The notes under the pieces are model-generated. The model ran no database searches, had not been told where the DNA came from, and worked only from the letters and a program-made list of their open reading frames with translations. DNA of 64,000 nucleotides from positions 1,435 to 65,434 of the forward strand of contig CAYXKM010000285.1 of the NCBI GenBank assembly GCA_964465665.1, given 5' to 3'. This DNA is from an uncultured Woeseiaceae bacterium (lineage in GTDB: Bacteria > Pseudomonadota > Gammaproteobacteria > Steroidobacterales > Woeseiaceae). The position numbers and the translations under genes were made by a program. Below, in pieces: positions 283-10,038 of the stretch (its first letter is position 1; every line of letters starts with the position of its first letter).

Positions 283-675
283 TCAGTGTTTGCCTGGATC
301 GAGCTCGACGCCGCGGCGTTCCTTGTACGCATACGCCAGCATGGCGATCATGCGCGGGTCGTCTGCGGCAAGGTCTTTGCCTTCCAGCGGATTGCGGATG
401 CACCAGTTGATCATTTCCCAAAGTTGCGCCACGCGGCCGATTTGCTTCTGAAATTTCGGATAGGTCTCCGGATGCGTATTGGCCGCATTCGGGTGGCATT
501 GCGCGCAGGCAACGCCGTTGGTGCCGATCTCCGGGCTGGTCCAGAGCCTCCGTCCTTCCGTTGCAACCAGCTCGAACTGTTCCATCCAGCGGGCGGTGTC
601 TTCCTCGGTAAATTCATCCGCAATCGCCGGGCCGGAAAGGCACAACATCAACGTACACAGGGTCAGGTATTTCAT
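283..675 (-). CDS. Periplasmic mono-haem c-type cytochrome (130 aa)
   Basis: C-terminal 130 codons of ORF 283..1185, starting at MKYLTLCTLMLCLSGPAIA (signal peptide). Single CAQCH haem motif. The ATG at 675 lies 11 nt after the upstream gene's stop. Confidence 0.85.
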   Translation of the reverse strand: MKYLTLCTLMLCLSGPAIADEFTEEDTARWMEQFELVATEGRRLWTSPEIGTNGVACAQCHPNAANTHPETYPKFQKQIGRVAQLWEMINWCIRNPLEGKDLAADDPRMIAMLAYAYKERRGVELDPGKH

Positions 676-686
676 GCGAGCCTCTC

Positions 687-1769
687 CTAGAAATGCTGCT
701 GGGCCGGTATGCGTATTGCCGGGTCCGAGAAACTCGTGTCTTCCGGGTGACCCTTGGCGGTATTGAATGCAATCGTCCGATTCGAGTTGTTGTACAAATT
801 GAATTCCAGGTCGACTCTGCCGGTGTGCATGTTCATGAACTGCCAGCCGGTCGCATCGCGTTCGTTGAAAGGATCCGCGCGGTTCATCGGTACCGTCAGG
901 ATCGGCATATGACTTTCGGCCAGTGCATAGCTTTCCGGATACGGCCACGGCCACGCCGTCGACATCACCGAAGTGAATGCAATGTTGCCGATCTGGTTGT
1001 ACTGGATCTGGTGTACATGGCCATAGATGACATTGACCTTGTCGAAAGGCCTTAGCATTGCCTGGATGTCGTCGGCTTCCTCGGTCCAGAAATTCCAGCC
1101 TTTGTAGATCTTCTGCAAAGGCGAGTGTGAAAAGACCACGATCGGCGTGTCCTTTGAAACCTTCGCGAGATCCTTTCGCAGCCATTCCATTTGCTTGGCA
1201 CCTATCATGAACGGCGAGCCGTTCGGATTGTCGAGGCCCGCCATCTCGTTCATGCGGCGCTCGTCCGATTCCCAGCGATCGAAGGTCCAGTCATCGTACG
1301 TAAGAATGCTGTTCAGGGTGATGAAGTGCACGCCCTTGTGGTCCCAGCTGTAGTAATGCTTGCCGTAGAGCTTGCTCCAGTACTCACCAAGGTCCAGGTA
1401 ATAGTCGTGCTCGCCCATGACCATGTACGTTTTGTAATTGAGCTTGGCCAGCATCTCTGCGCCGTGATCCAGTTCCGGCTTCGAACCGAGCTGTGCCAGG
1501 TCGCCACCGAAAACGACGAAATCGGGTTTCGGTTCGAGCAGGTTCGCCTCGGCCACAGCGCGTATCAGGCCGCGGTCCCAGTTCCGGACAAATTGGTTGC
1601 CCTTGATCTGCTGAATGTGCGAATCGGAAATATAGGCGAAGGTGAAATCGGGACCGCCTTCCTTGCCGTAGGACAGCCGTATCAGGCTGACCGGCAACAT
1701 TCCGGCGATCACGCCGGACATCGTGGTTCGCAAGAAATCCCTTCGGCTATTCACTTTAATGCTTTTCAT
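687..1769 (-). CDS. Tat-exported metallophosphoesterase (calcineurin-like)
   Basis: ORF 687..1769. Twin-arginine leader NSRRDFLRT. Metallophosphoesterase motifs DSH, GGD, GEHD (variant of GNH[DE]), SHSP and GHVH. Confidence 0.85.
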   Translation of the reverse strand: MKSIKVNSRRDFLRTTMSGVIAGMLPVSLIRLSYGKEGGPDFTFAYISDSHIQQIKGNQFVRNWDRGLIRAVAEANLLEPKPDFVVFGGDLAQLGSKPELDHGAEMLAKLNYKTYMVMGEHDYYLDLGEYWSKLYGKHYYSWDHKGVHFITLNSILTYDDWTFDRWESDERRMNEMAGLDNPNGSPFMIGAKQMEWLRKDLAKVSKDTPIVVFSHSPLQKIYKGWNFWTEEADDIQAMLRPFDKVNVIYGHVHQIQYNQIGNIAFTSVMSTAWPWPYPESYALAESHMPILTVPMNRADPFNERDATGWQFMNMHTGRVDLEFNLYNNSNRTIAFNTAKGHPEDTSFSDPAIRIPAQQHF

Positions 1770-2911
1770 TGTGTATCTCCCGATACGCCAGAGGCTGCAA
1801 CCGACTGAGCCTTCAGTGACTGGAACTGCGGGCTGGTAAGCGTTTCCATGAATGCGACCAGGTCGTCGATCTCCTGTTCTGTAAGATTCAACGGCCGAAT
1901 CCCGCCACTCAGGAACGGATTGACCGGATCTTCAGGCTTGGTCACACCGCCATTGTTGTAGTGTTCGACCACTTCGCGCAGCGTCTTCACGCTGCCGTCG
2001 TGCATGTACGGTGCGGTCACGTCGATGTTGCGCAACGTTGATGTCTTGAAGGAACCCATGGAGCTGAACTGGTCGTCGACCGCAAACCGTCCGAGATGCG
2101 ACGTATCCGCATCCGAGAGCACGGCGACATCGACATCCATTCCGGCATTCTTTGCTACCTGGAAGGCCCGTGCCAGTTCCGGTACCTTGTCCTGGATGTT
2201 GTTGATGCCGATGCCGATGTTGTGAAACAGGTGATCAGTAAAAAGGGCGAAGTCCTGTTCGATCGCGTGGCACGACACACATCGTCCGTTGCCAAGAAAT
2301 GTGGCGAATCCGCGTTTGGCCTGCTCGCTGATCGCATCCTGCTCGCCGCCGAAGTACCAGCGATCAAACGGTGAGTCACCGGAGATCTGCGTGCGTTCGA
2401 AGGCAGCGATGGCCCTGGTCACTTCTTTCATCGTGATCGATGTGGCGTCCACACCGAACACATCGCTGAACGACTTTATGTATGCCCGGTCACTTCGAAC
2501 GATTGTCAGCAGCGCATCATCGTTCGACATCGCCATTTCCACGGGATTCACGAACGGGTGCATGGACTGGTCCTCGAGGTCCGGCGAACGGCCGTCCCAG
2601 AACTGGGTCTTGTTGAACGCGGCATTGACGATTGTCGGCGCATTGCGCGTGCCGGTCAGTTTGCTTATGCCTTCGGAAACACTCAACGGACTGTCCGTAA
2701 ACGCCTTCTCTGCCACGTGGCAGGTTGCGCAACTGACCTCGCCTGTGGCACTGAAGCGCACATCGTTGAACAGCCGGCTGCCCAGTGCAATTTTCTCCGG
2801 TGTCTGCGGGTTGTCTGCCGGTATCGGGACTTCCGGCAATCCGAGTGGCGCATCCGCCAGTAGCGGGGCCGCCAGGATCAGGATGCCCACGGCGATCAAT
2901 GGTTTATTCAC
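1766..2911 (-). CDS. Di-haem cytochrome c peroxidase / MauG family protein
   Basis: ORF 1766..3109 trimmed to the GTG at 2911, which is preceded by GGAGGA. Signal peptide NKPLIAVGILILAAPLLADA. Two haem motifs, CATCH and CVSCH, and a CCP-like C-terminus (APYMHDGS). Its stop overlaps the downstream start (ATGA). Confidence 0.9.
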   Translation of the reverse strand: MNKPLIAVGILILAAPLLADAPLGLPEVPIPADNPQTPEKIALGSRLFNDVRFSATGEVSCATCHVAEKAFTDSPLSVSEGISKLTGTRNAPTIVNAAFNKTQFWDGRSPDLEDQSMHPFVNPVEMAMSNDDALLTIVRSDRAYIKSFSDVFGVDATSITMKEVTRAIAAFERTQISGDSPFDRWYFGGEQDAISEQAKRGFATFLGNGRCVSCHAIEQDFALFTDHLFHNIGIGINNIQDKVPELARAFQVAKNAGMDVDVAVLSDADTSHLGRFAVDDQFSSMGSFKTSTLRNIDVTAPYMHDGSVKTLREVVEHYNNGGVTKPEDPVNPFLSGGIRPLNLTEQEIDDLVAFMETLTSPQFQSLKAQSVAASGVSGDTQ

Positions 2912-3402
2912 TTTGTTTCCTCCCCGCTTTCTGCGGCGCGGTTGCTGGTCAATACATCTGTGGATTCCTGCGGCGAAGGTACGCCGCAGTTGAAAACTGC
3001 TGCGCCATCGAACCAGACAACCTGGTCGGCCTGCAGAACCTGCACGTCGCTGTAGCCGCGTTCCCGCAGGCTGAGTTGCAGCGCCGTCGCCCGTTTGCCG
3101 GTTCTGCAATAAACCACGATGGGCTCATCCAGGTCCGCCGGCAGGTCGGTGTTCGAATCGATGGGAGAATCGTGCGGCACGTTGATCGCACCGCTGATGT
3201 GCGACGCCTGAAATTCCTCGGCGGATCGGGCATCGAGCAAGGTGAATGTGCTGTTGTCAGCCAGGAAGGACAGCAACAGCTTCTGCGGGACAGGTGTACG
3301 GTTTGCGGTGATTTCATCGGCCAGCGCATCGACGCGCCCTGCAAGCAACGCGGGCAGCATAATCGTCACAGCAAAGAGCAGACGTCTAATTGCCGGTTTC
3401 AC
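2908..3402 (-). CDS. Periplasmic rhodanese-domain sulfurtransferase
   Basis: ORF 2908..3402 with a GTG start. Signal peptide and active-site loop CRTGKR. 4-nt overlap (GTGA) with the CCP gene. Confidence 0.85.
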   Translation of the reverse strand: MKPAIRRLLFAVTIMLPALLAGRVDALADEITANRTPVPQKLLLSFLADNSTFTLLDARSAEEFQASHISGAINVPHDSPIDSNTDLPADLDEPIVVYCRTGKRATALQLSLRERGYSDVQVLQADQVVWFDGAAVFNCGVPSPQESTDVLTSNRAAESGEETK

Positions 3403-3428
3403 CAGGCCACCCCTTTAGTCCGAATCGT

Positions 3429-3457
3429 TAGACTTGTTCTAATTTAGAGTCAGTCTA
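3429..3457. promoter_or_regulatory. 29-bp imperfect palindrome in a divergent promoter gap (candidate operator)
   Basis: TAGACTtgtTCTAA-T-TTAGAgtcAGTCTA, with 11 of 14 arm positions pairing around one centre (3443). It lies between the rhodanese operon start (3402) and the DUF3313-like start (3624). Confidence 0.4.
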
Positions 3458-3623
3458 GAAGGGCTTATGTACAATGTCAATTGCGGTAAATACAGTGCGC
3501 GGGGCTGGCCCTGACCGTCGTTGCCTTCATCGAGGGCGACAGGTATCTTGATGAGGCAACAACAATTTTCCTTCTGTAAATAACAAAAACGACCGCCTGT
3601 GTAAGGCCGGTTGGAGGCATGCA

Positions 3624-4331
3624 ATGCAAGCGAGCAGAAAGTCCCGAATCCTTCTTGGCGTGATCGCCACGGCCGCCATGGCGATGTCTGCCATCGCCAA
3701 GGAAGAAATTCCGGAGACGACACCGGAAGGTCTGGTGCTGATGAAGGACAGCAAGGCAAGGCTTGTTTATGCCAGGCCCGGCGCAACGCTGGACCAGTAC
3801 ACCAAGGTTGCGTTGCTCGATTGCTACGTCGCTTTCAAGAAGAACTGGGAAAGGGATTACAACCGCGATGCGTCAACGCTTAGCGGCCGCGTAACGACCG
3901 AGGACATGGAAAAAATCAAGAAACTCGTCGCTGATGAGTTCAGGACAATATTCACCGAGGAACTGCAGGAAAAGGGTGGCTACCCGCTGGTCGACGTGGC
4001 TGGCGAAGATGTACTGGTTGTAAGGCCGGCAATCCTCAATCTCGACGTCACCGCCCCCGACATCAATAACAGCGCGGGCAATCGCCAGTTCGTCACATCG
4101 GCAGGCGAGATGACCCTGTTTATGGAGCTGTTCGATTCATCGACCGGCGAAATCATTGCGCGGATCGTCGATCCGCAGGCAGCCGACAGGGGCGGTTTCG
4201 CGACGATGGCCAACAGTGTCACCAACAAGGCGGAAGCAGACCGGATCCTGCGTAAATGGGCTGTCGCGCTGCGCGGCCATCTCGGTGACCTGGACAAGGC
4301 AACGACGGCCGAGGGGGAGGCCGCGAACTAA
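3624..4331 (+). CDS. Secreted protein, DUF3313-like (family assignment from memory)
   Basis: ORF 3624..4331. GGAGG lies upstream of the ATG. Signal peptide ends AIA-KEE. Confidence 0.6.
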   Translation: MQASRKSRILLGVIATAAMAMSAIAKEEIPETTPEGLVLMKDSKARLVYARPGATLDQYTKVALLDCYVAFKKNWERDYNRDASTLSGRVTTEDMEKIKKLVADEFRTIFTEELQEKGGYPLVDVAGEDVLVVRPAILNLDVTAPDINNSAGNRQFVTSAGEMTLFMELFDSSTGEIIARIVDPQAADRGGFATMANSVTNKAEADRILRKWAVALRGHLGDLDKATTAEGEAAN

Positions 4332-4445
4332 TTTGGTGACAGTGACCTTAATTGACTCCGGCTGGTACTAGATCCCGAGACTTCTTTACCTTTATATGAA
4401 CAAGGGTAACTGTCACCAAATTAATAAGGTCACTGTCACTGTCAC
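4331..4445. repeat. Small intergenic element with terminal inverted repeats, copy 2, plus an extra half-site
   Basis: ATTTGGTGACAGTGACC at 4331-4347, GGGTAACTGTCACCA at 4404-4418, and GGTCACTGTCACTGTCAC at 4428-4445. Confidence 0.8.
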
Positions 4446-5359
4446 TTAACTTGGCGCAGGCACCAGTACTGCACTTTCTGCGCCTCGAGAAACGCCTCGG
4501 CGTTCGCGCCGTTCAGCATCGCCAGCGTCGTGAGCATGCCGGCCTGGGTGCAGGTGTCGGCGGCCACGGTAACGGATTCGGGCGCGTTCTCGACCGGCCA
4601 GCCGGTGAGGGGATTCAGGATGTGGCTGTAGCGAACGCCGTTCTTCAGCAGGAATCGGCGCGAATCGCCGCTGGTCGCCAGCGCACCCGATCGCAATGAA
4701 ATCAGTTTCTGCACGGAGCCTTCCCGGCACGGCGCTTCGATACCGACCTGCCAGCCGGCAGGTTGCCTGACCTCGCCGGTTACGACGAGATCGCCACCGA
4801 AGTTGATCAGGCAGGGGCGGGACGTCAGTTGCGTGACCAGGCCGGCCGCCCGGTCCACCGCATACTCCTTGCCGATCCCTCCGAGGTCAATCTGCATGCC
4901 GCGCTGCATGCGTATTCGAGGACGCGCCCAGGACACGCGACGCCAGCCGATGGCAACGAGGACCTGAGCGATTCTGTCTGCGGTCGGTATCCGGTCACTG
5001 CCATCGAATACCCAGACTTTTCGCAGCGCACCCGACGTGATGTCGAACCGGTGTTCACTCAGTTCGTAAAGTGTTACAGCGAAGTCCAGCAGGTTGGCAG
5101 TTTCGTCATCCACTGTGACCGCCTGCCCGTCGCTTTCGTTAATTCTCGCGACGATGTTGCCGGGTCGATACCGGCTGAACTTGTCTTCGATGCGCCAGGC
5201 TTCGGCGGCGACCCGCTGCAACAAGGCATTGGCGAGCGCCTCGTCGTCGGTGTCGATGAGGAGTTCGCACGGACTGCCCATGGCATGGAACAGCCCCTGG
5301 TAGTAGCCTGCTGCGGCACGCCGCAATTCCGGATTGCGGCAAATGCCGGCCTGCTTCAC
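4442..5359 (-). CDS. apbE: FAD:protein FMN transferase (ApbE family)
   Basis: ORF 4442..5428. ApbE-like blocks: MGSPCELLI, FDITSGAL, GGIGKEYAVD and ATSGDSRRF..YSHILNP. Start uncertain. I chose the GTG at 5359 because it does not overlap the upstream gene. ATG alternatives are at 5407 and 5428. Confidence 0.85.
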   Translation of the reverse strand: MKQAGICRNPELRRAAAGYYQGLFHAMGSPCELLIDTDDEALANALLQRVAAEAWRIEDKFSRYRPGNIVARINESDGQAVTVDDETANLLDFAVTLYELSEHRFDITSGALRKVWVFDGSDRIPTADRIAQVLVAIGWRRVSWARPRIRMQRGMQIDLGGIGKEYAVDRAAGLVTQLTSRPCLINFGGDLVVTGEVRQPAGWQVGIEAPCREGSVQKLISLRSGALATSGDSRRFLLKNGVRYSHILNPLTGWPVENAPESVTVAADTCTQAGMLTTLAMLNGANAEAFLEAQKVQYWCLRQVK

Positions 5360-5372
5360 AGGTCGTCTGTCC

Positions 5373-6701
5373 TCAGAAGCGATAGCTGAATTGCGCAATA
5401 ATGGCATCGAGGTCGGGATACAGTTCACGGCCGGCCTGGTTGCCGATAATCTGGTCTGACGGAGCGGAGCCGTCCTGCATATAGTATTCGAGCCGCACGC
5501 TCATCTCGTTGTCCGATCGTGTCTTCCAGCCGTACTTCATACCGACGGTAATCGCATCGAATTCGCCGAGTCGATAGTCGGACGAGGCAAATTCGAGCGG
5601 CGGTGCACCATCGACGAGACTGATGCGGTAGAAATCCGCTGCAGTTTGCGTATACCAGCGTACATGCGGTTCGAGGTATCGCCGGTCACCGAAAGGCCAG
5701 CGATAGCGAGCTTCCAGTGTATGCGAGTCGATCTCCCAATCGTCCGTCATGTAACGGTACGACAGATCGAGCACGTTGCCGCTCATGTAGTACTTTGCCT
5801 GGCCGTAGATGCTGTGCTTTGTTCGGTCGTCGGGGCGGCTCTCGAAGCGGTACTCGTGCAACGGTCCGGATTCGCCGGGCGGGAGCGTGCGAACCACCGG
5901 ATCACCGGTGGTGCCATCTACGAGGCTCAGGAATTTATACGGATCGTTGAGATAACCGCTGGACTGGCTCAGCGAGTAATTGAACTGGAACAGGAGATCC
6001 CGGCTGACGACCTGGGTCAGGCCGAGCACCAGGTCGGCGACGTCCTTGTCCTGGTCACCGATCCGGTTCGAAAGGTCGCCGACGTCCAGCATGGCCGACA
6101 GCGGCACCGGTGCACCCCCTTCCGGTTCAAGGCTGTCCTGCGCGTAGGCAAGTCCGAGCGACAGCGTCGTGTTTCGCTTGTTGAAATCGCGTGACAGTCC
6201 CACATTGGCTCCGAGATGGACGTAGTCGTATTCCTTGGAGGCGCTCAATCCGGCATTGATCGAATACAGCCGTGCAAACGGCTGTTGCCAGCCGGCCGTG
6301 AGGGCTACGCGCGTATCGAGAAAGCTGTCGTCGAGCGGGATCTCGTTGGCCGCCGTGGTGTAGGTGGCTTTGCCGGAGGGCCTTGTGAATGTCTGGGGTC
6401 CGTCGAACGGCAACGCACCGCTCGGTGTTGCGCCTGTCAGTGAGTCGGCAACAAGTCCGAGTGTCAGGATCCGATCGTCGACAAACGTGCGGCGCACGAG
6501 CAGGTTCAGGCTCAAGTCCTGCACACGGTCGTCGCTCTCGCCATAGTAAAGTAGCGCCGTATTGAAATCCCAGCCGGGTTCTTCCTGCGCTTGCACCGGT
6601 GAAACTGTCGATGTTCCCAGCAATGAGCAGGCTGCTGTCGCGAGCGACGCGGCGATGGAACGAGTGCTTTGTTTCGACATTCGATCTGGCTTCGTAGTCA
6701 T
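5373..6701 (-). CDS. DUF3570-like predicted outer-membrane beta-barrel protein
   Basis: ORF 5373..6737 trimmed to the ATG at 6701 (GGAG upstream). Signal peptide ends VQA-QEE. Alternating beta-strand-like sequence with a C-terminal FSYRF. Contains DSLTGAT. The DUF assignment is from memory of the conserved DUF4266/DUF3570/ApbE/thioredoxin neighbourhood. Confidence 0.7.
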   Translation of the reverse strand: MTTKPDRMSKQSTRSIAASLATAACSLLGTSTVSPVQAQEEPGWDFNTALLYYGESDDRVQDLSLNLLVRRTFVDDRILTLGLVADSLTGATPSGALPFDGPQTFTRPSGKATYTTAANEIPLDDSFLDTRVALTAGWQQPFARLYSINAGLSASKEYDYVHLGANVGLSRDFNKRNTTLSLGLAYAQDSLEPEGGAPVPLSAMLDVGDLSNRIGDQDKDVADLVLGLTQVVSRDLLFQFNYSLSQSSGYLNDPYKFLSLVDGTTGDPVVRTLPPGESGPLHEYRFESRPDDRTKHSIYGQAKYYMSGNVLDLSYRYMTDDWEIDSHTLEARYRWPFGDRRYLEPHVRWYTQTAADFYRISLVDGAPPLEFASSDYRLGEFDAITVGMKYGWKTRSDNEMSVRLEYYMQDGSAPSDQIIGNQAGRELYPDLDAIIAQFSYRF

Positions 6702-6708
6702 CTCCGCC

Positions 6709-6942
6709 TCAATTGCAGCCGCAGCCGCCGCCGCCAAAGCCGCGTCCGCCGCTCGAGGCTTCCTTGCTGAAATAAATGTGGTCGTCGATGCCGGCTTCTA
6801 CGGCATCCGTTGTCAGCTGCATCTCTTCTTTTGCCAAAACGTCACGTTCCCACGGTTCGACGCCCATGGACGTACATCCGCTTGCCGTTGCAGCAAGCAG
6901 CAGACATAGCGCCGCCGCTTTCAATGCTCTGAAATTCAACAT
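6709..6942 (-). CDS. DUF4266-like small lipoprotein with Gly/Cys tail
   Basis: ORF 6709..6942 (77 aa). Lipobox LAATASGC. C-terminus GGRGFGGGGCGCN. Confidence 0.7.
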   Translation of the reverse strand: MLNFRALKAAALCLLLAATASGCTSMGVEPWERDVLAKEEMQLTTDAVEAGIDDHIYFSKEASSGGRGFGGGGCGCN

Positions 6943-6946
6943 GCAG

Positions 6947-7438
6947 TCAATCCTCTCCTGATGTCAGTACCTGCCTGATTTTTTCCTCGTACTCATCAGA
7001 CTTTTTGACCTGAAAACCCATGTGGGTGGCAACGACGGCGCCGTCGCGACCAATGATGTAGGAACTCGGCATCGCTTCGACTTCGAAATACCGTGCCAGG
7101 TCGCCGCCGGGATCGGCAGCGATGGTGAACTGCGCCGGATAGTCCCGCAGAAACGCGTCAGCATCGCCGGGGTCGGCGTCCATGTTCACGCCGATGATGA
7201 CCAGGCCCTGCGCGGAATACTTCTCCTGCATGCGATTCATCCACGGAAAAGAACGACGGCAGGGCACGCACCACGAGGCCCAGAAATCGAGCAGCACCAC
7301 CTGGCCGCGATAGTCGTCGAGGTTCAGCGAGGATTCGGCAGCGGGACTCGAGCTGATCGCCAGGGAACTGGCGATCAGCATCAGGAAAGCGGCGAGGGCC
7401 GGGCCGAAATTTCGAACGCGAGACACGTCCATATGCAA
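6947..7438 (-). CDS. TlpA/ResA-family periplasmic thiol:disulfide oxidoreductase
   Basis: ORF 6947..7438. Signal/anchor segment, WCVPC active site and thioredoxin fold blocks. Confidence 0.9.
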   Translation of the reverse strand: MHMDVSRVRNFGPALAAFLMLIASSLAISSSPAAESSLNLDDYRGQVVLLDFWASWCVPCRRSFPWMNRMQEKYSAQGLVIIGVNMDADPGDADAFLRDYPAQFTIAADPGGDLARYFEVEAMPSSYIIGRDGAVVATHMGFQVKKSDEYEEKIRQVLTSGED

Positions 7439-7591
7439 CAGGTGACCTTTATCAACGGATTTTCCAGGGCGTTCGACAGCGTGCTCTGCTGCCAGCCTGC
7501 CTCAATAGACGTTGGTCAATGAAAAATCGGTCGCTGGCCCACTGCCGCATGGCCTGCCGCTCGCCGAGCGGTCAGGCCGAAGTATTGAGGA

Positions 7592-8290
7592 CTACCAGCG
7601 GAAACCAATCGTCAGCGGGATGAACTCTATGTTCTCCCGTTCGAACTGAATCTGGTGATACTTCGCTTCGATGAAAATCTGCCCGTTGTAGGTGTTGAAA
7701 CTGTAGCCTGCACCGAGATTCCAGCCGAATTCGTCCGCAGAGGTACTGCCAACGACAAACGTGCCGGGCCCGACGCCGCCCGGATAGCACCACCAGAACC
7801 ACGGATCGCAGACCGGCGGATAGTAGACGAGCCCGTCCTGCGTAACTTCGCCGCCGACGTGGTACCAGCCGACGCCGCCGGTCAGGTACAAGCCGCTGCC
7901 GTTGCTGCCGCTCAAGCTCCAGATGCCGTTCAACCCCAGTTGCCAGTAATCGACGCCGCCTCCGGAAATGTTGCCGTCGTTGTTCGGATCCTGGTCGATG
8001 GCGTCATTGATGGCGCTCAGTGCCGAACTCGACAGATCGAAGTCGGTGTAGGCACCCTCGATCGAGAGTCCGATCGGCCAGTCCGAAGGCCAGTACAGTG
8101 CACCGCCGCTGAAGGTCCAGTCATCGTCAAGGACGTCGCCTGTGTCGCCCTGCGGGAAAGCCCAGCCGGCACCTATGTGCCCGAACCAGTCTCTGGACTG
8201 GTCATCGGGCCGACCCCCGGCCCACGCAGGTGCGATTGCCAGCGACGTGGCGGCGAGTACGGCACAAGCTTTTGAAATTGTTCGCGACAT
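7592..8290 (-). CDS. Small outer-membrane beta-barrel protein
   Basis: ORF 7592..8527 trimmed to the ATG at 8290 (GGAGGA 10 nt upstream). Signal peptide MSRTISKACAVLAATSLAIAPAWA. Gly/aromatic-rich sequence with a C-terminal GFRW. Confidence 0.75.
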   Translation of the reverse strand: MSRTISKACAVLAATSLAIAPAWAGGRPDDQSRDWFGHIGAGWAFPQGDTGDVLDDDWTFSGGALYWPSDWPIGLSIEGAYTDFDLSSSALSAINDAIDQDPNNDGNISGGGVDYWQLGLNGIWSLSGSNGSGLYLTGGVGWYHVGGEVTQDGLVYYPPVCDPWFWWCYPGGVGPGTFVVGSTSADEFGWNLGAGYSFNTYNGQIFIEAKYHQIQFERENIEFIPLTIGFRW

Positions 8291-8601
8291 AAACGAGAAG
8301 TCCTCCGACTTGATGAAATTATTATTCATTCTGGCAGATCCGGTGAGTACTGACACTTGTAGAATCGAAACCCCCGCGTAAGTTCCACACGGGGCGTAAC
8401 GCAGGCTGGCAGTCCGCCACCAGTGTATATCGATTGCCGCGATGAGTGGCGCGAAGCCTGAGGGAAGCCGATAGCTCATTGCGCTGTTACAAATGCTTAC
8501 CGTTTGGCCAATACCGCGCGCCGACAAATCCGTACACTATGATCCAGTGTCGATGACGCCGGATCGATGTGCAAAACCTGAATTACCCAGCAGATCCATA
8601 A

Positions 8602-10038
8602 ATGACCGGCATTCGCTCTCACATCCTGTGGTTTCGCCAGGATCTTCGACTCTCGGACAACCCGGCACTGCACGCGGCCGCTGCCAGCGGTGCCCCGATA
8701 CTGCCGGTTTATGTGTTGGACGACATCAAAGCGGATGACTGGGAAATCGGCGCTGCAGGACGCTGGTGGCTGCATAGGAGTCTTGCGGCACTGAATACGG
8801 ATCTCGGTGGCAGCCTGCGGTTTTTCAAAGGTGATGCGAAGAGCATTATCCTGCGACTCGCCAACGAGACCGACGCGAGCGCCATTTTCTGGAATCGCTG
8901 TTATGAACCGTGGCGGCGAACGCGCGACGAAACGCTGCGAACCGCATTGATTCAGGGGGGCAGGGAAGTTCGCAGTTTCAATGCATCGATGTTGTTCGAG
9001 CCGATGAGCATAAACAAGGCCGATCGTTCGCCGTACAAGGTCTTTACCCCGTTCTGGAATAAAGGCTGCCTGGAAAAAGGGCCTGCGCCGAGGACTGTCA
9101 TCGCTGCGCCTGCCGGTCTGAAGTACTGCGCGTATCCGGAGGAAGCCAGCCTGGACGAGCTCGAATTGCTGCCGGCGATCCGCTGGTACGACGAAATGCA
9201 AAGCGTATGGCAACCCGGTGAGCGCGGTGCGCGACAGCGCCTTCACGAGTTCCTGCAACATGGTCTGAAAAACTACGAAACGGGGCGAGACTTTCCAGCG
9301 AGGGGAAACGTCTCGCGATTGTCGCCACATTTGCATTGGGGCGAGATCTCGCCGCACCAGGCCTGGCAGGCGCTCGACGCGCAAGACGGGAGAAATGCAC
9401 CGCCGGGAGATATCGAGCATTTCCGCCGCGAGCTCGGCTGGCGGGAATTCTCGTACAACCTTCTGTATCACTTCCCACAGTTGCCGAAGGAAAACCTGCA
9501 ACGCAAATTCAATCGCTTTCCCTGGCGCGACGATCCCGGCTCGTTGCGTCGCTGGCAGCGCGGTGAGACGGGCTATCCCATTGTCGATGCGGGCATGCGC
9601 GAGCTTTGGCGTACCGGCTATATGCACAACCGTGTGCGCATGATCACCGGCTCGTTTCTCGTGAAGAACCTGTTGCTGCACTGGCATCACGGCGAACGCT
9701 GGTTCTGGGACACACTGGTCGATGCCGATCTCGCCAACAACAGCGCGAGCTGGCAGTGGATTGCCGGCTGCGGGGCCGATGCCGCTCCTTATTTCCGGAT
9801 ATTCAACCCGGTAACACAGGGACGTAAGTTCGATCCCGACGGCGCTTACGTGCGACGCAATGTCCCGGAGCTTGCCGCTCTGCCGGATCGTTACCTGCAT
9901 GCTCCGTGGGAAGCACCGACAGAAGTCCTTAAGGAATGTGGCATCACGCTGGGGCGTACTTATCCCAGGCCGATCGTCGATTTGAAAGAATCGCGCGAGC
10001 GCGCCCTGCAGGCGTTCGGATCACTTACACCGGACTAG
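8602..10038 (+). CDS. phrB: Deoxyribodipyrimidine photolyase
   Basis: ORF 8602..10038. N-terminal WFRQDLRLSDNPAL and C-terminal FAD-binding blocks (GYPIVDAGMREL, MHNRVRM, WQW..G). Confidence 0.92.
   Translation: MTGIRSHILWFRQDLRLSDNPALHAAAASGAPILPVYVLDDIKADDWEIGAAGRWWLHRSLAALNTDLGGSLRFFKGDAKSIILRLANETDASAIFWNRCYEPWRRTRDETLRTALIQGGREVRSFNASMLFEPMSINKADRSPYKVFTPFWNKGCLEKGPAPRTVIAAPAGLKYCAYPEEASLDELELLPAIRWYDEMQSVWQPGERGARQRLHEFLQHGLKNYETGRDFPARGNVSRLSPHLHWGEISPHQAWQALDAQDGRNAPPGDIEHFRRELGWREFSYNLLYHFPQLPKENLQRKFNRFPWRDDPGSLRRWQRGETGYPIVDAGMRELWRTGYMHNRVRMITGSFLVKNLLLHWHHGERWFWDTLVDADLANNSASWQWIAGCGADAAPYFRIFNPVTQGRKFDPDGAYVRRNVPELAALPDRYLHAPWEAPTEVLKECGITLGRTYPRPIVDLKESRERALQAFGSLTPD

Follow-up and report, generated by a model that had tools for sequence, protein, structure and literature searches.

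A Woeseiaceae operon predicted to place a covalent flavin on an outer-membrane barrel, with a linked ApbE that carries no export signal

The 64-kb stretch of DNA analysed here (the window), from an uncultured Woeseiaceae bacterium, carries on its minus strand a compact operon of four genes that encode a TlpA-like redoxin, a DUF4266 lipoprotein, a DUF3570 protein and an ApbE-family transferase of flavin mononucleotide (FMN) from flavin adenine dinucleotide (FAD). The operon is a DsbD-less case, in a Woeseiaceae-like gammaproteobacterium, of the ApbE/DUF3570/thioredoxin-like/DUF4266 module that Meheust, Huang, Rivera-Lugo, Banfield and Light reported in hundreds of gene clusters (eLife 2021; PMC8238504). 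An initial annotation of this DNA had implied that the arrangement was new, an implication that has to be withdrawn, since both the module and the key co-expression experiment, performed on a homologue, are already contained in that paper. The four-gene module and the flavinylation of a homologue are thus already known; what our analysis adds is a model of DUF3570 as a barrel, the placement of the flavin site in a loop, a description of the lipoprotein tail, the synteny of the module and the finding that the linked ApbE is signal-less. With the likely starts taken from the sequence, the principal features, with lengths in amino acids (aa), are as follows.

6947 to 7432, minus strand (ATG at 7432, stop at 6947): predicted TlpA/ResA-type periplasmic thiol:disulfide oxidoreductase, 161 aa, with an N-terminal signal or anchor and the active site W-C55-V-P-C58 (codons 7270..7259)
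6709 to 6942, minus strand: DUF4266 lipoprotein, 77 aa, with the lipobox A-S-G-C23, Thr at position +2 and a Gly-rich tail that ends C74-G-C76-N (codons 6723..6712)
5373 to 6701, minus strand (ATG at 6701, stop at 5373): DUF3570, 442 aa, a Sec signal peptide followed by a predicted 16-stranded outer-membrane beta-barrel; GGAG 5 nucleotides (nt) upstream of the ATG
6414 to 6446, minus strand: flavinylation motif D86-S-L-T89-G90-A91-T92-P-S94-G95-A96 of DUF3570, with T92 the predicted FMN acceptor
DUF3570 residues 90-128 (L2), 192-216 (L4), 250-291 (L5), 353-380 (L7) and 412-430 (L8): long loops, placed on the outward side by standard porin topology
4442 to 5359, minus strand (GTG at 5359, stop at 4442): ApbE-family FAD:protein FMN transferase, 305 aa, without an export signal

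Four open reading frames (ORFs) are present on the minus strand, as the initial annotation had described for four reverse-strand genes 4-13 nt apart, with successive gaps of 4, 7 and 13 nt, the last of which separates DUF3570 from ApbE. A check against hidden Markov models agreed with the family named for every gene, in each case through a Pfam profile match. The TlpA-like protein matches AhpC-TSA (9.8e-21) and Redoxin (2.8e-20) in Pfam, and its best NCBIfam models, ResA, DsbE and TlpA, each score it under their cut-off; as it falls under every equivalog cut-off in NCBIfam, it is not a named orthologue. Its best match in the PDB by a wide margin is 3gl3, a 'putative DsbE' (4e-39), followed by ResA (8e-21) and TlpA (2e-13). 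We take 3gl3 to be a Chlorobium protein, perhaps the orthologous partner from a DUF3570 cluster of Chlorobium. The annotated WCVPC motif lies at the codons given above. Our comparisons with other genomes draw on 80 species-level loci (designated by L numbers) that were retrieved via DUF3570 and in which the partners were located by tblastn; CxPC is kept in the syntenic TlpA homologues and takes the form CVPC in 34 of 57. With the CxxC active site of a thioredoxin fold and a hydrophobic N-terminus, the protein is strongly predicted to be a periplasmic CxPC reductant.

The second protein covers the whole of the DUF4266 profile (PF14086, E 1.3e-22, profile positions 1-50 of 50). Its lipobox ASGC and its C-terminus, GGGGCGCN, confirm the 77-aa lipoprotein with a CGC tail that had been proposed, and both features recur at nearly every locus that has the gene, the lipobox in 77 of 78 and a GGCGCN end in 76 of 78, with a core between lipobox and tail that reads PWERD..LAK..M and DDHIYFSKEASSGG. 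A conserved CXC at the DUF4266 C-terminus was likewise reported in the 2021 survey (PMC8238504). Position +2 is occupied by S, A, G, T or N across the 78 loci and in none of them by D, and because no Asp stands there the rule established for E. coli predicts sorting to the outer membrane. From these sequence features DUF4266 is strongly predicted to be a small lipoprotein of the outer membrane whose tail, flexible and rich in Gly, ends in CXC.

DUF3570 matches PF12094 over profile positions 2-427 of 427 (E 1e-133; 446.7 bits, with a gathering cut-off of 25). Its signal peptide, with an inferred cleavage between VQA and QEE, and its C-terminal end FSYRF can both be seen in the sequence, as annotated. 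An AlphaFold2 model, for which the input was a 128-sequence alignment of two clades, has a mean predicted local distance difference test score (pLDDT) of 90.3 and a predicted template modelling score (pTM) of 0.84, and consists of 16 long antiparallel strands with disorder only in the signal peptide. The top matches of this model in a Foldseek search of the PDB are all outer-membrane barrels, namely OmpG, AlgE, OccAB1, TodX/FadL, BcsC (TMq 0.47) and PelB, with a Foldseek probability of 1.00 for OmpG, AlgE, BcsC and PelB. This structure check bears out the earlier suggestion that the 442-aa protein is a beta-barrel of the outer-membrane type. The protein combines a signal peptide, an even number of strands, short turns on one side with long loops on the other and a C-terminal aromatic residue, all hallmarks of outer-membrane barrels, and the model strongly predicts that DUF3570 is one. 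The Foldseek template modelling scores are modest, which argues that DUF3570 is a barrel type of its own, and no solved relative was found by sequence profile in the PDB.

The model also suggests how the barrel would be oriented. Because the mature N-terminus starts just ahead of strand 1 and the strand number is even, as in porin architecture, the short connections, among them residues 73-77, 143-145 and 174-177, would be periplasmic turns and the long connections would face outward. The mean frequency of the top residue is 0.48 in the long loops, 0.50 in the strands and lowest, at 0.36, in the periplasmic turns, and among the five long loops conservation peaks in L2 (0.60). Such conservation of the long loops is unusual for an outer-membrane protein, and we take this to mean that they pack into or over the lumen and form the flavin site there, rather than serving as free surface loops.

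In the AlphaFold2 model the flavinylation motif closes strand 3 and opens L2, which would put the flavin where this best conserved of the long loops begins and, if standard porin topology applies, on the outward or lumen side. The motif forms a tandem pseudo-repeat, [TS]-G-A-[ST]-P-x-G-A-x, with the near-invariant form DxL[TS]GA[ST]PxGA. Among 129 diverse representatives D86 is kept in 128, G90 and G95 in all 129, A91 in 110 and a Ser or Thr at position 92 in 128, while D86, T89, G90 and G95 are invariant in the DUF3570 alignment (A1); counts and alignment agree that TGAT is the invariant acceptor motif of the family. Among the window's long ORFs [ST]GA[ST] occurs only in DUF3570 (TGAT, T89-T92), which the initial annotation had given as the sole bearer of the motif, and once in a CitMHS permease.

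That an ApbE flavinylates DUF3570 is shown for a homologue. The DUF3570 protein of Chlorobium luteolum was flavinylated on co-expression with its cognate ApbE, and the modification was lost only when the serines of both of its [S/T]GA[S/T] motifs were mutated (PMC8238504). By analogy, ApbE is predicted to attach FMN to Thr92 of the window's DUF3570. The last position of the pseudo-repeat is Ser or Thr in 34 of the 129 representatives, for example DSLSGASPSGAS in P0224, with its tandem SGASPSGAS, and we infer that this position corresponds to the second acceptor site of the published experiment. In the window's protein the second half-repeat reads S-G-A-L97, with Leu in place of the acceptor Ser or Thr; a single canonical site is left, and only T92 would therefore be modifiable.

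The ApbE of the operon is a member of its family (PF02424, 6e-68) and not the E. coli-type equivalog, with 94.3 bits against NCBIfam model NF007774, for which the cut-off is 498. ApbE/FMN transferases in the PDB match it at 3.5e-38 to 1e-19, and its TSGD and RYSHILNP, the latter with the catalytic His, align with TSGDY and with YHHI(L/I)DP or YSHIIDP of the solved proteins. Ahead of the first strand of the fold (…GLFHAMGSPCE…) stand about 25 polar residues, and reading the frame back to the previous stop reveals no hydrophobic N-terminus either. Across 56 syntenic homologues the highest hydropathy of any 10-residue stretch ahead of the fold has a median of 0.52, compared with 2.0-2.7 at the N-termini of the other three, exported proteins of the module. 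Neither a signal peptide nor a lipobox nor a twin-arginine translocation (Tat) motif was found in the window's ApbE or its syntenic homologues, and the distant ApbE of locus L086 (5476-6381) is alike in this respect. Two candidate signals were rejected: the Tat-like 'LRRAAAGYY' is followed by no hydrophobic region and its RR is missing in most homologues, and the lipobox-like 'AGIC' has no hydrophobic region and a Cys that is missing in relatives. The initial annotation had assumed an extracytoplasmic ApbE, an assumption that these sequences do not bear out; lacking an export signal, the DUF3570-linked ApbE subfamily is predicted to be cytoplasmic. At the start of the fold this subfamily carries a conserved AM(G/A)(S/C)PCE (in the window, in the genes of L001-L080 and in L086).

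A topology problem follows that is unexplained, in that an ApbE predicted to be cytoplasmic has as its only plausible substrate a Sec-exported barrel. Cytoplasmic ApbEs do exist in Klebsiella, where they have cytoplasmic substrates (PMC12052999). Given an ApbE without an export signal, DUF3570 is probably flavinylated as an unfolded precursor, and possibly before its export by Sec. The published assay flavinylated a DUF3570 without its signal peptide that was insoluble in the E. coli cytoplasm (PMC8238504), which implies that ApbE needs no folded barrel, and passage of an FMN-bearing chain through SecYEG is physically possible because adducts as large as about 2.4 nm are tolerated by the open channel (PMC6028853, citing Bonardi 2011). 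That a second ApbE, too, can modify DUF3570 is suggested by the loci that have no linked ApbE. In one 717-aa protein of the representative library, P0261, a complete DUF3570 including its last strand is joined to an ApbE domain 56% identical to that of the window. As evidence for a periplasmic ApbE this fusion was set aside, being a single read-through product that may be an assembly or frameshift artefact.

Comparison across genomes indicates that the four genes belong together. DUF4266 was located at 78, TlpA at 76 and ApbE at 66 of the 80 DUF3570 loci, a recurrence that makes chance adjacency untenable, and gene order and strand agree with the window at every locus where ApbE comes directly after DUF3570 (in L022 and L073 it lies upstream). 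A look-up of the exact sequence of the window's DUF3570 among public assemblies gave no record. The closest loci, at 89% identity, come from Woeseiaceae and from unclassified gammaproteobacterial metagenome-assembled genomes (MAGs) of sediment, and the lineages with the module include Woeseiaceae, Kangiella, Granulosicoccus, Glaciecola, Oceanicoccus and Aliikangiella. Flanking genes vary by lineage and the core is constant, which identifies the core as a functional module. The wide co-occurrence of the four families without an assigned function, which the initial annotation had put forward, is substantiated by these counts and by the 2021 survey, in which DUF3570 accompanies 227 DsbD clusters, 221 of them including DUF4266 and 183 a thioredoxin-like protein, and a further 316 DUF3570 clusters have no neighbouring DsbD (PMC8238504). 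Our own search returned about 2,000 clusters of DUF3570 homologues at 50% identity. In a clade at 35-40% identity (L081, L083 and L085; the P0208 clade) a DUF4266-DUF3570 pair stands with no TlpA or ApbE within 6-8 kb, and the acceptor motif is conserved as D-x-L-T-G-A-[ST]; since this distant clade has the pair alone, lipoprotein and barrel form the invariant core. The full four-gene order is present on the L086 contig, whose DUF3570 is 38% identical to that of the window, and a metagenome scan with the distant homologue P0224 returned only its own contig.

The genes beside the module in other lineages suggest a link with thiol and metal chemistry. In five Kangiella loci (L065, L068, L069 and L070, together with L066) the module has CutA1 on one side and on the other a DsbD of full length, made up of DsbD_N, DsbD_TM and thioredoxin domains, and DsbD adjoins it in the Oceanicoccus locus L061. 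The genes for CutA1 and DsbD are also neighbours in the cutA copper-tolerance locus of E. coli, and the Kangiella flanks are a strong hint at DsbD as the electron source and at a metal-related role. Locus L065, which has the order CutA1-TlpA-DUF4266-DUF3570-ApbE-DsbD, belongs to Kangiella aquimarina DSM 16071, an organism that can be cultured. Six loci that lack ApbE (L006, L008, L017, L018, L019 and L082) carry an extracytoplasmic function (ECF) sigma factor, FecR, a TonB-dependent receptor, TlpA, DUF4266 and DUF3570 in this order; these copies retain the acceptor motif, and at least one genome, OFTM24, holds both this form (L006) and an ApbE-linked one (L028). In 15-18 Woeseiaceae loci MbnP (PF20243, 1.6e-36) and an MbnH-like di-haem peroxidase follow one gene downstream of ApbE, at about +2.9 to +4.9 kb when counted from the start of DUF3570 (L014, L025, L027, L028, L036 and others); the window lacks MbnP, and its di-haem peroxidase (1766-3109) is a different one. 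In Granulosicoccus and Glaciecola an OmpR-type two-component system adjoins the module.

The reading that we favour, with moderate confidence, is a DsbD-fed relay from thiols to a flavin that terminates in the outer membrane. Cytoplasmic thioredoxin would supply reducing equivalents, and a DsbD/CcdA-type protein, whose gene would lie elsewhere in this genome (in Kangiella it lies next door), would carry them over the inner membrane and reduce TlpA, which in turn would reduce the CGC disulfide of DUF4266. The lipoprotein tail would then enter the barrel and give the FMN two electrons, by dithiol-to-flavin chemistry of the kind found in Erv/QSOX-type enzymes, and the flavin would pass them on, within the barrel lumen or at the cell surface, to an acceptor for which Fe(III) or Cu(II) is the most plausible candidate, in the service of metal acquisition or detoxification. 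A thiol/flavin relay that may reach the outer membrane matches the published proposal of a hybrid thioredoxin-like/flavinylation system fed by DsbD, the function of which its authors call uncertain (PMC8238504). A bolder form of the same idea, which we advance only tentatively and regard as rather improbable, is a haem-free conduit across the outer membrane, in which the CGC tail threads into the barrel and reduces the loop FMN, which would deliver the electrons to an extracellular metal or oxidant, combined with a cytoplasmic ApbE that modifies the precursor before it passes SecYEG.

Several observations weigh against such a relay. Neither an electron donor (DsbD/CcdA) nor an acceptor is encoded within the window, where the multi-helix proteins number just three, an ABC permease, a LytTR protein and the CitMHS transporter; no polytopic redox membrane protein of the DsbD, Nqr or Rnf kind is present there, in keeping with the earlier remark that the usual acceptors Nqr and Rnf are absent. 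We know of no precedent for a cytoplasmic ApbE that modifies a Sec substrate. The DUF4266-DUF3570 pair of the second clade has neither TlpA nor ApbE nearby, and the thioredoxin step may thus be dispensable. The metal-related neighbours, finally, are lineage-specific and could reflect plain synteny.

Of the alternatives, metal handling, and copper handling in particular, survives best, though we consider it unlikely. Here the CGC of DUF4266 would bind Cu(I), TlpA would keep it reduced, the barrel would be a metal channel and the flavin would set the Cu2+/Cu+ or Fe3+/Fe2+ state. The CXC of the chaperone CCS binds Cu(I), and the TlpA of Bradyrhizobium reduces ScoI and CoxB. The genomic surroundings lend the idea substance: CutA1 and DsbD flank the module in the five Kangiella loci, the MbnP/MbnH-like pairs lie downstream in the Woeseiaceae loci, the ECF sigma/FecR/TonB receptor genes stand directly upstream of TlpA in six loci, the OmpR-type systems adjoin in Granulosicoccus and Glaciecola, and VIT1 iron transporters occur in 25 of the published clusters (PMC8238504). 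However, none of these metal genes stands beside the operon in the window, the neighbours vary among lineages, and metal handling overlaps with the favoured relay without excluding it.

Flow in the reverse direction, which would make the module a sulfhydryl oxidase, is less probable still. Envelope thiols would be oxidised via TlpA and the CGC tail, and the electrons would leave through the barrel FMN to O2 or an external oxidant, in the manner of Erv2p, whose C-terminal Cys-Gly-Cys tail carries electrons to the flavin and whose architecture of tail and flavin the window's proteins resemble; the outward or lumen side position that the model suggests for the flavin would be within reach of O2 or other oxidants. 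Yet CxPC together with similarity to ResA, TlpA and DsbE is typical of DsbD-fed reductants and not of DsbA-like oxidants, and the recurrent partner DsbD, at related loci and in the 2021 clusters, is a supplier of reductant (PMC8238504). That the adjacency is merely incidental, with ApbE serving a cytoplasmic target and DUF3570 an ordinary channel of the porin kind, any flavin on which would come from another, periplasmic ApbE, seems to us highly improbable. Although the missing export signal, the Klebsiella ApbEs with cytoplasmic substrates (PMC12052999) and at least a dozen DUF3570 loci without an adjacent ApbE would fit it, ApbE lies near DUF3570 in 66 of the 80 loci and in almost every one of them comes directly after it (L022 and L073 excepted; 13 nt away in the window), no other candidate bearing [ST]GA[ST] is nearby, the acceptor motif is invariant in DUF3570 and a cognate ApbE-DUF3570 pair has been shown to work (PMC8238504).

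Around the operon, one further feature bears on its limits.

4330 to 4446, no strand assigned: palindromic element between the convergent stops of a DUF3313 gene and apbE, with inverted GGTGACAGTKAC arms

This element folds into a 15-bp stem (-38.2 kcal/mol, z -4.2) and is likely the 3' end of the operon, as a hairpin or bidirectional terminator. The palindromic element, about 80-115 nt long, is found in two copies in the window, at 195-275 and 4330-4446, both at gene 3' ends. The inverted GGTGACAGTKAC arms have 6 matches where 0.63 are expected, and each copy folds up as a long hairpin, its stem measuring about 10-15 bp (z -4.2 and -4.9); the element looks like a repeat of the repetitive extragenic palindrome (REP) or miniature inverted-repeat transposable element (MITE) type that also serves as a terminator. 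A search of 3300-9000 with Rfam for a riboswitch such as that for FMN gave no match, and a scan for promoter and terminator consensus sequences gave nothing exceeding the shuffled expectation. Upstream of the module, at 7592-8527 on the minus strand, lies a 311-aa ORF with an internal signal-peptide-like segment and an end like that of an outer-membrane protein (…TIGFRW), for which no family was found in Pfam or NCBIfam. In the closest relatives, L001-L003, a GntP-like permease occupies its position. As a fifth member of the module this ORF was rejected; it is absent from all 80 related loci (80/80) and on that account lies outside the module. At 283-3402 on the minus strand the window has a run of periplasmic redox genes, for a SoxA/TsdA-type cytochrome c, a metallophosphoesterase with a Tat signal, a di-haem cytochrome c peroxidase and a rhodanese. 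The last two adjoin the module again only in the closest relatives L001 and L002.

DUF3570 systems are among the flavinylation-linked envelope systems without an assigned function, and the 2021 survey places them in hundreds of genomes (PMC8238504). A 2023 preprint by Haft touches on the same neighbourhood in passing, a 2025 review of ApbE does not mention DUF3570, and our search of the literature turned up no later paper in which an outer-membrane barrel is flavinylated. If the flavin does sit in an outer-membrane barrel fed by thiols, the module would provide a cytochrome-free route for cytoplasmic reducing power to the cell surface, with a bearing on metal acquisition and on sediment redox cycling in the Woeseiaceae, which are known here only from sediment and environmental MAGs. 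Flavinylation before export, if true, would represent a new order of events for an exported flavoprotein, one in which periplasmic FAD is not needed, and the signal-less ApbE raises the question of where and when exported flavoproteins are modified. The interest that remains thus lies in the function of the module, in a flavin predicted on the outward or lumen side of a barrel and in a linked ApbE without a signal peptide.

Set against known systems, the window's operon is closest to the clusters of the 2021 survey, with which it shares the four adjoining families, the [S/T]GA[S/T] of DUF3570 and the CXC of DUF4266; like the 316 DsbD-less cases there, it has no DsbD (PF02683) beside it (PMC8238504). 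It differs in that its thioredoxin-like partner matches Redoxin/AhpC-TSA, of the TlpA/ResA type, whereas the family given in the paper is PF13899, in that its DUF3570 has the single canonical acceptor T92 with Leu97 at the inferred second site, and in that its ApbE lacks a signal peptide. The passages of the paper examined here apply neither 'beta-barrel' nor 'outer membrane' to DUF3570 (PMC8238504). With the flavinylation of NqrB/NqrC, RnfD/RnfG, NosR and PplA the operon has in common an ApbE-family enzyme with TSGD and the catalytic His and the Dxx[ST]GA[ST] logic of the acceptor; in contrast to those systems its acceptor is a predicted outer-membrane barrel rather than an FMN_bind domain or an inner-membrane subunit, and its ApbE is not a periplasmic lipoprotein. 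The cytoplasmic ApbE of Klebsiella pneumoniae, which serves a soluble fumarate reductase (PMC12052999), likewise has no N-terminal signal, but its substrate is cytoplasmic, whereas the only candidate in the window has a Sec signal peptide and an outer-membrane fold.

The proposed electron path has parallels of its own. MtrCAB and other porin-cytochrome conduits resemble it in pairing an outer-membrane barrel that houses a carrier of a redox cofactor with a lipoprotein, and in possible electron transfer across the outer membrane; the window's system would differ in being haem-free, with one covalent flavin on the barrel, and in taking its input from thiol/disulfide exchange rather than from periplasmic cytochromes. 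In Erv2p a flexible Cys-x-Cys tail lies beside the flavin, and in CCS a CXC tail is the arm that transfers Cu(I) or a disulfide. The likeness to Erv2p/QSOX and CCS is confined to the Cys-x-Cys tail mechanism: there is no relation in sequence or fold, tail and flavin are predicted here to reside on separate outer-membrane proteins, and the flavin would be covalent FMN and not FAD. Finally, the TlpA-ScoI/CoxB pair of Bradyrhizobium, ResA and CcmG offer the model of a DsbD/CcdA-fed periplasmic CxPC reductant dedicated to one client with a Cys pair, and the window's redoxin would extend it to a client that is neither a copper chaperone nor an apocytochrome, namely a 55-residue outer-membrane lipoprotein with a CGC tail.

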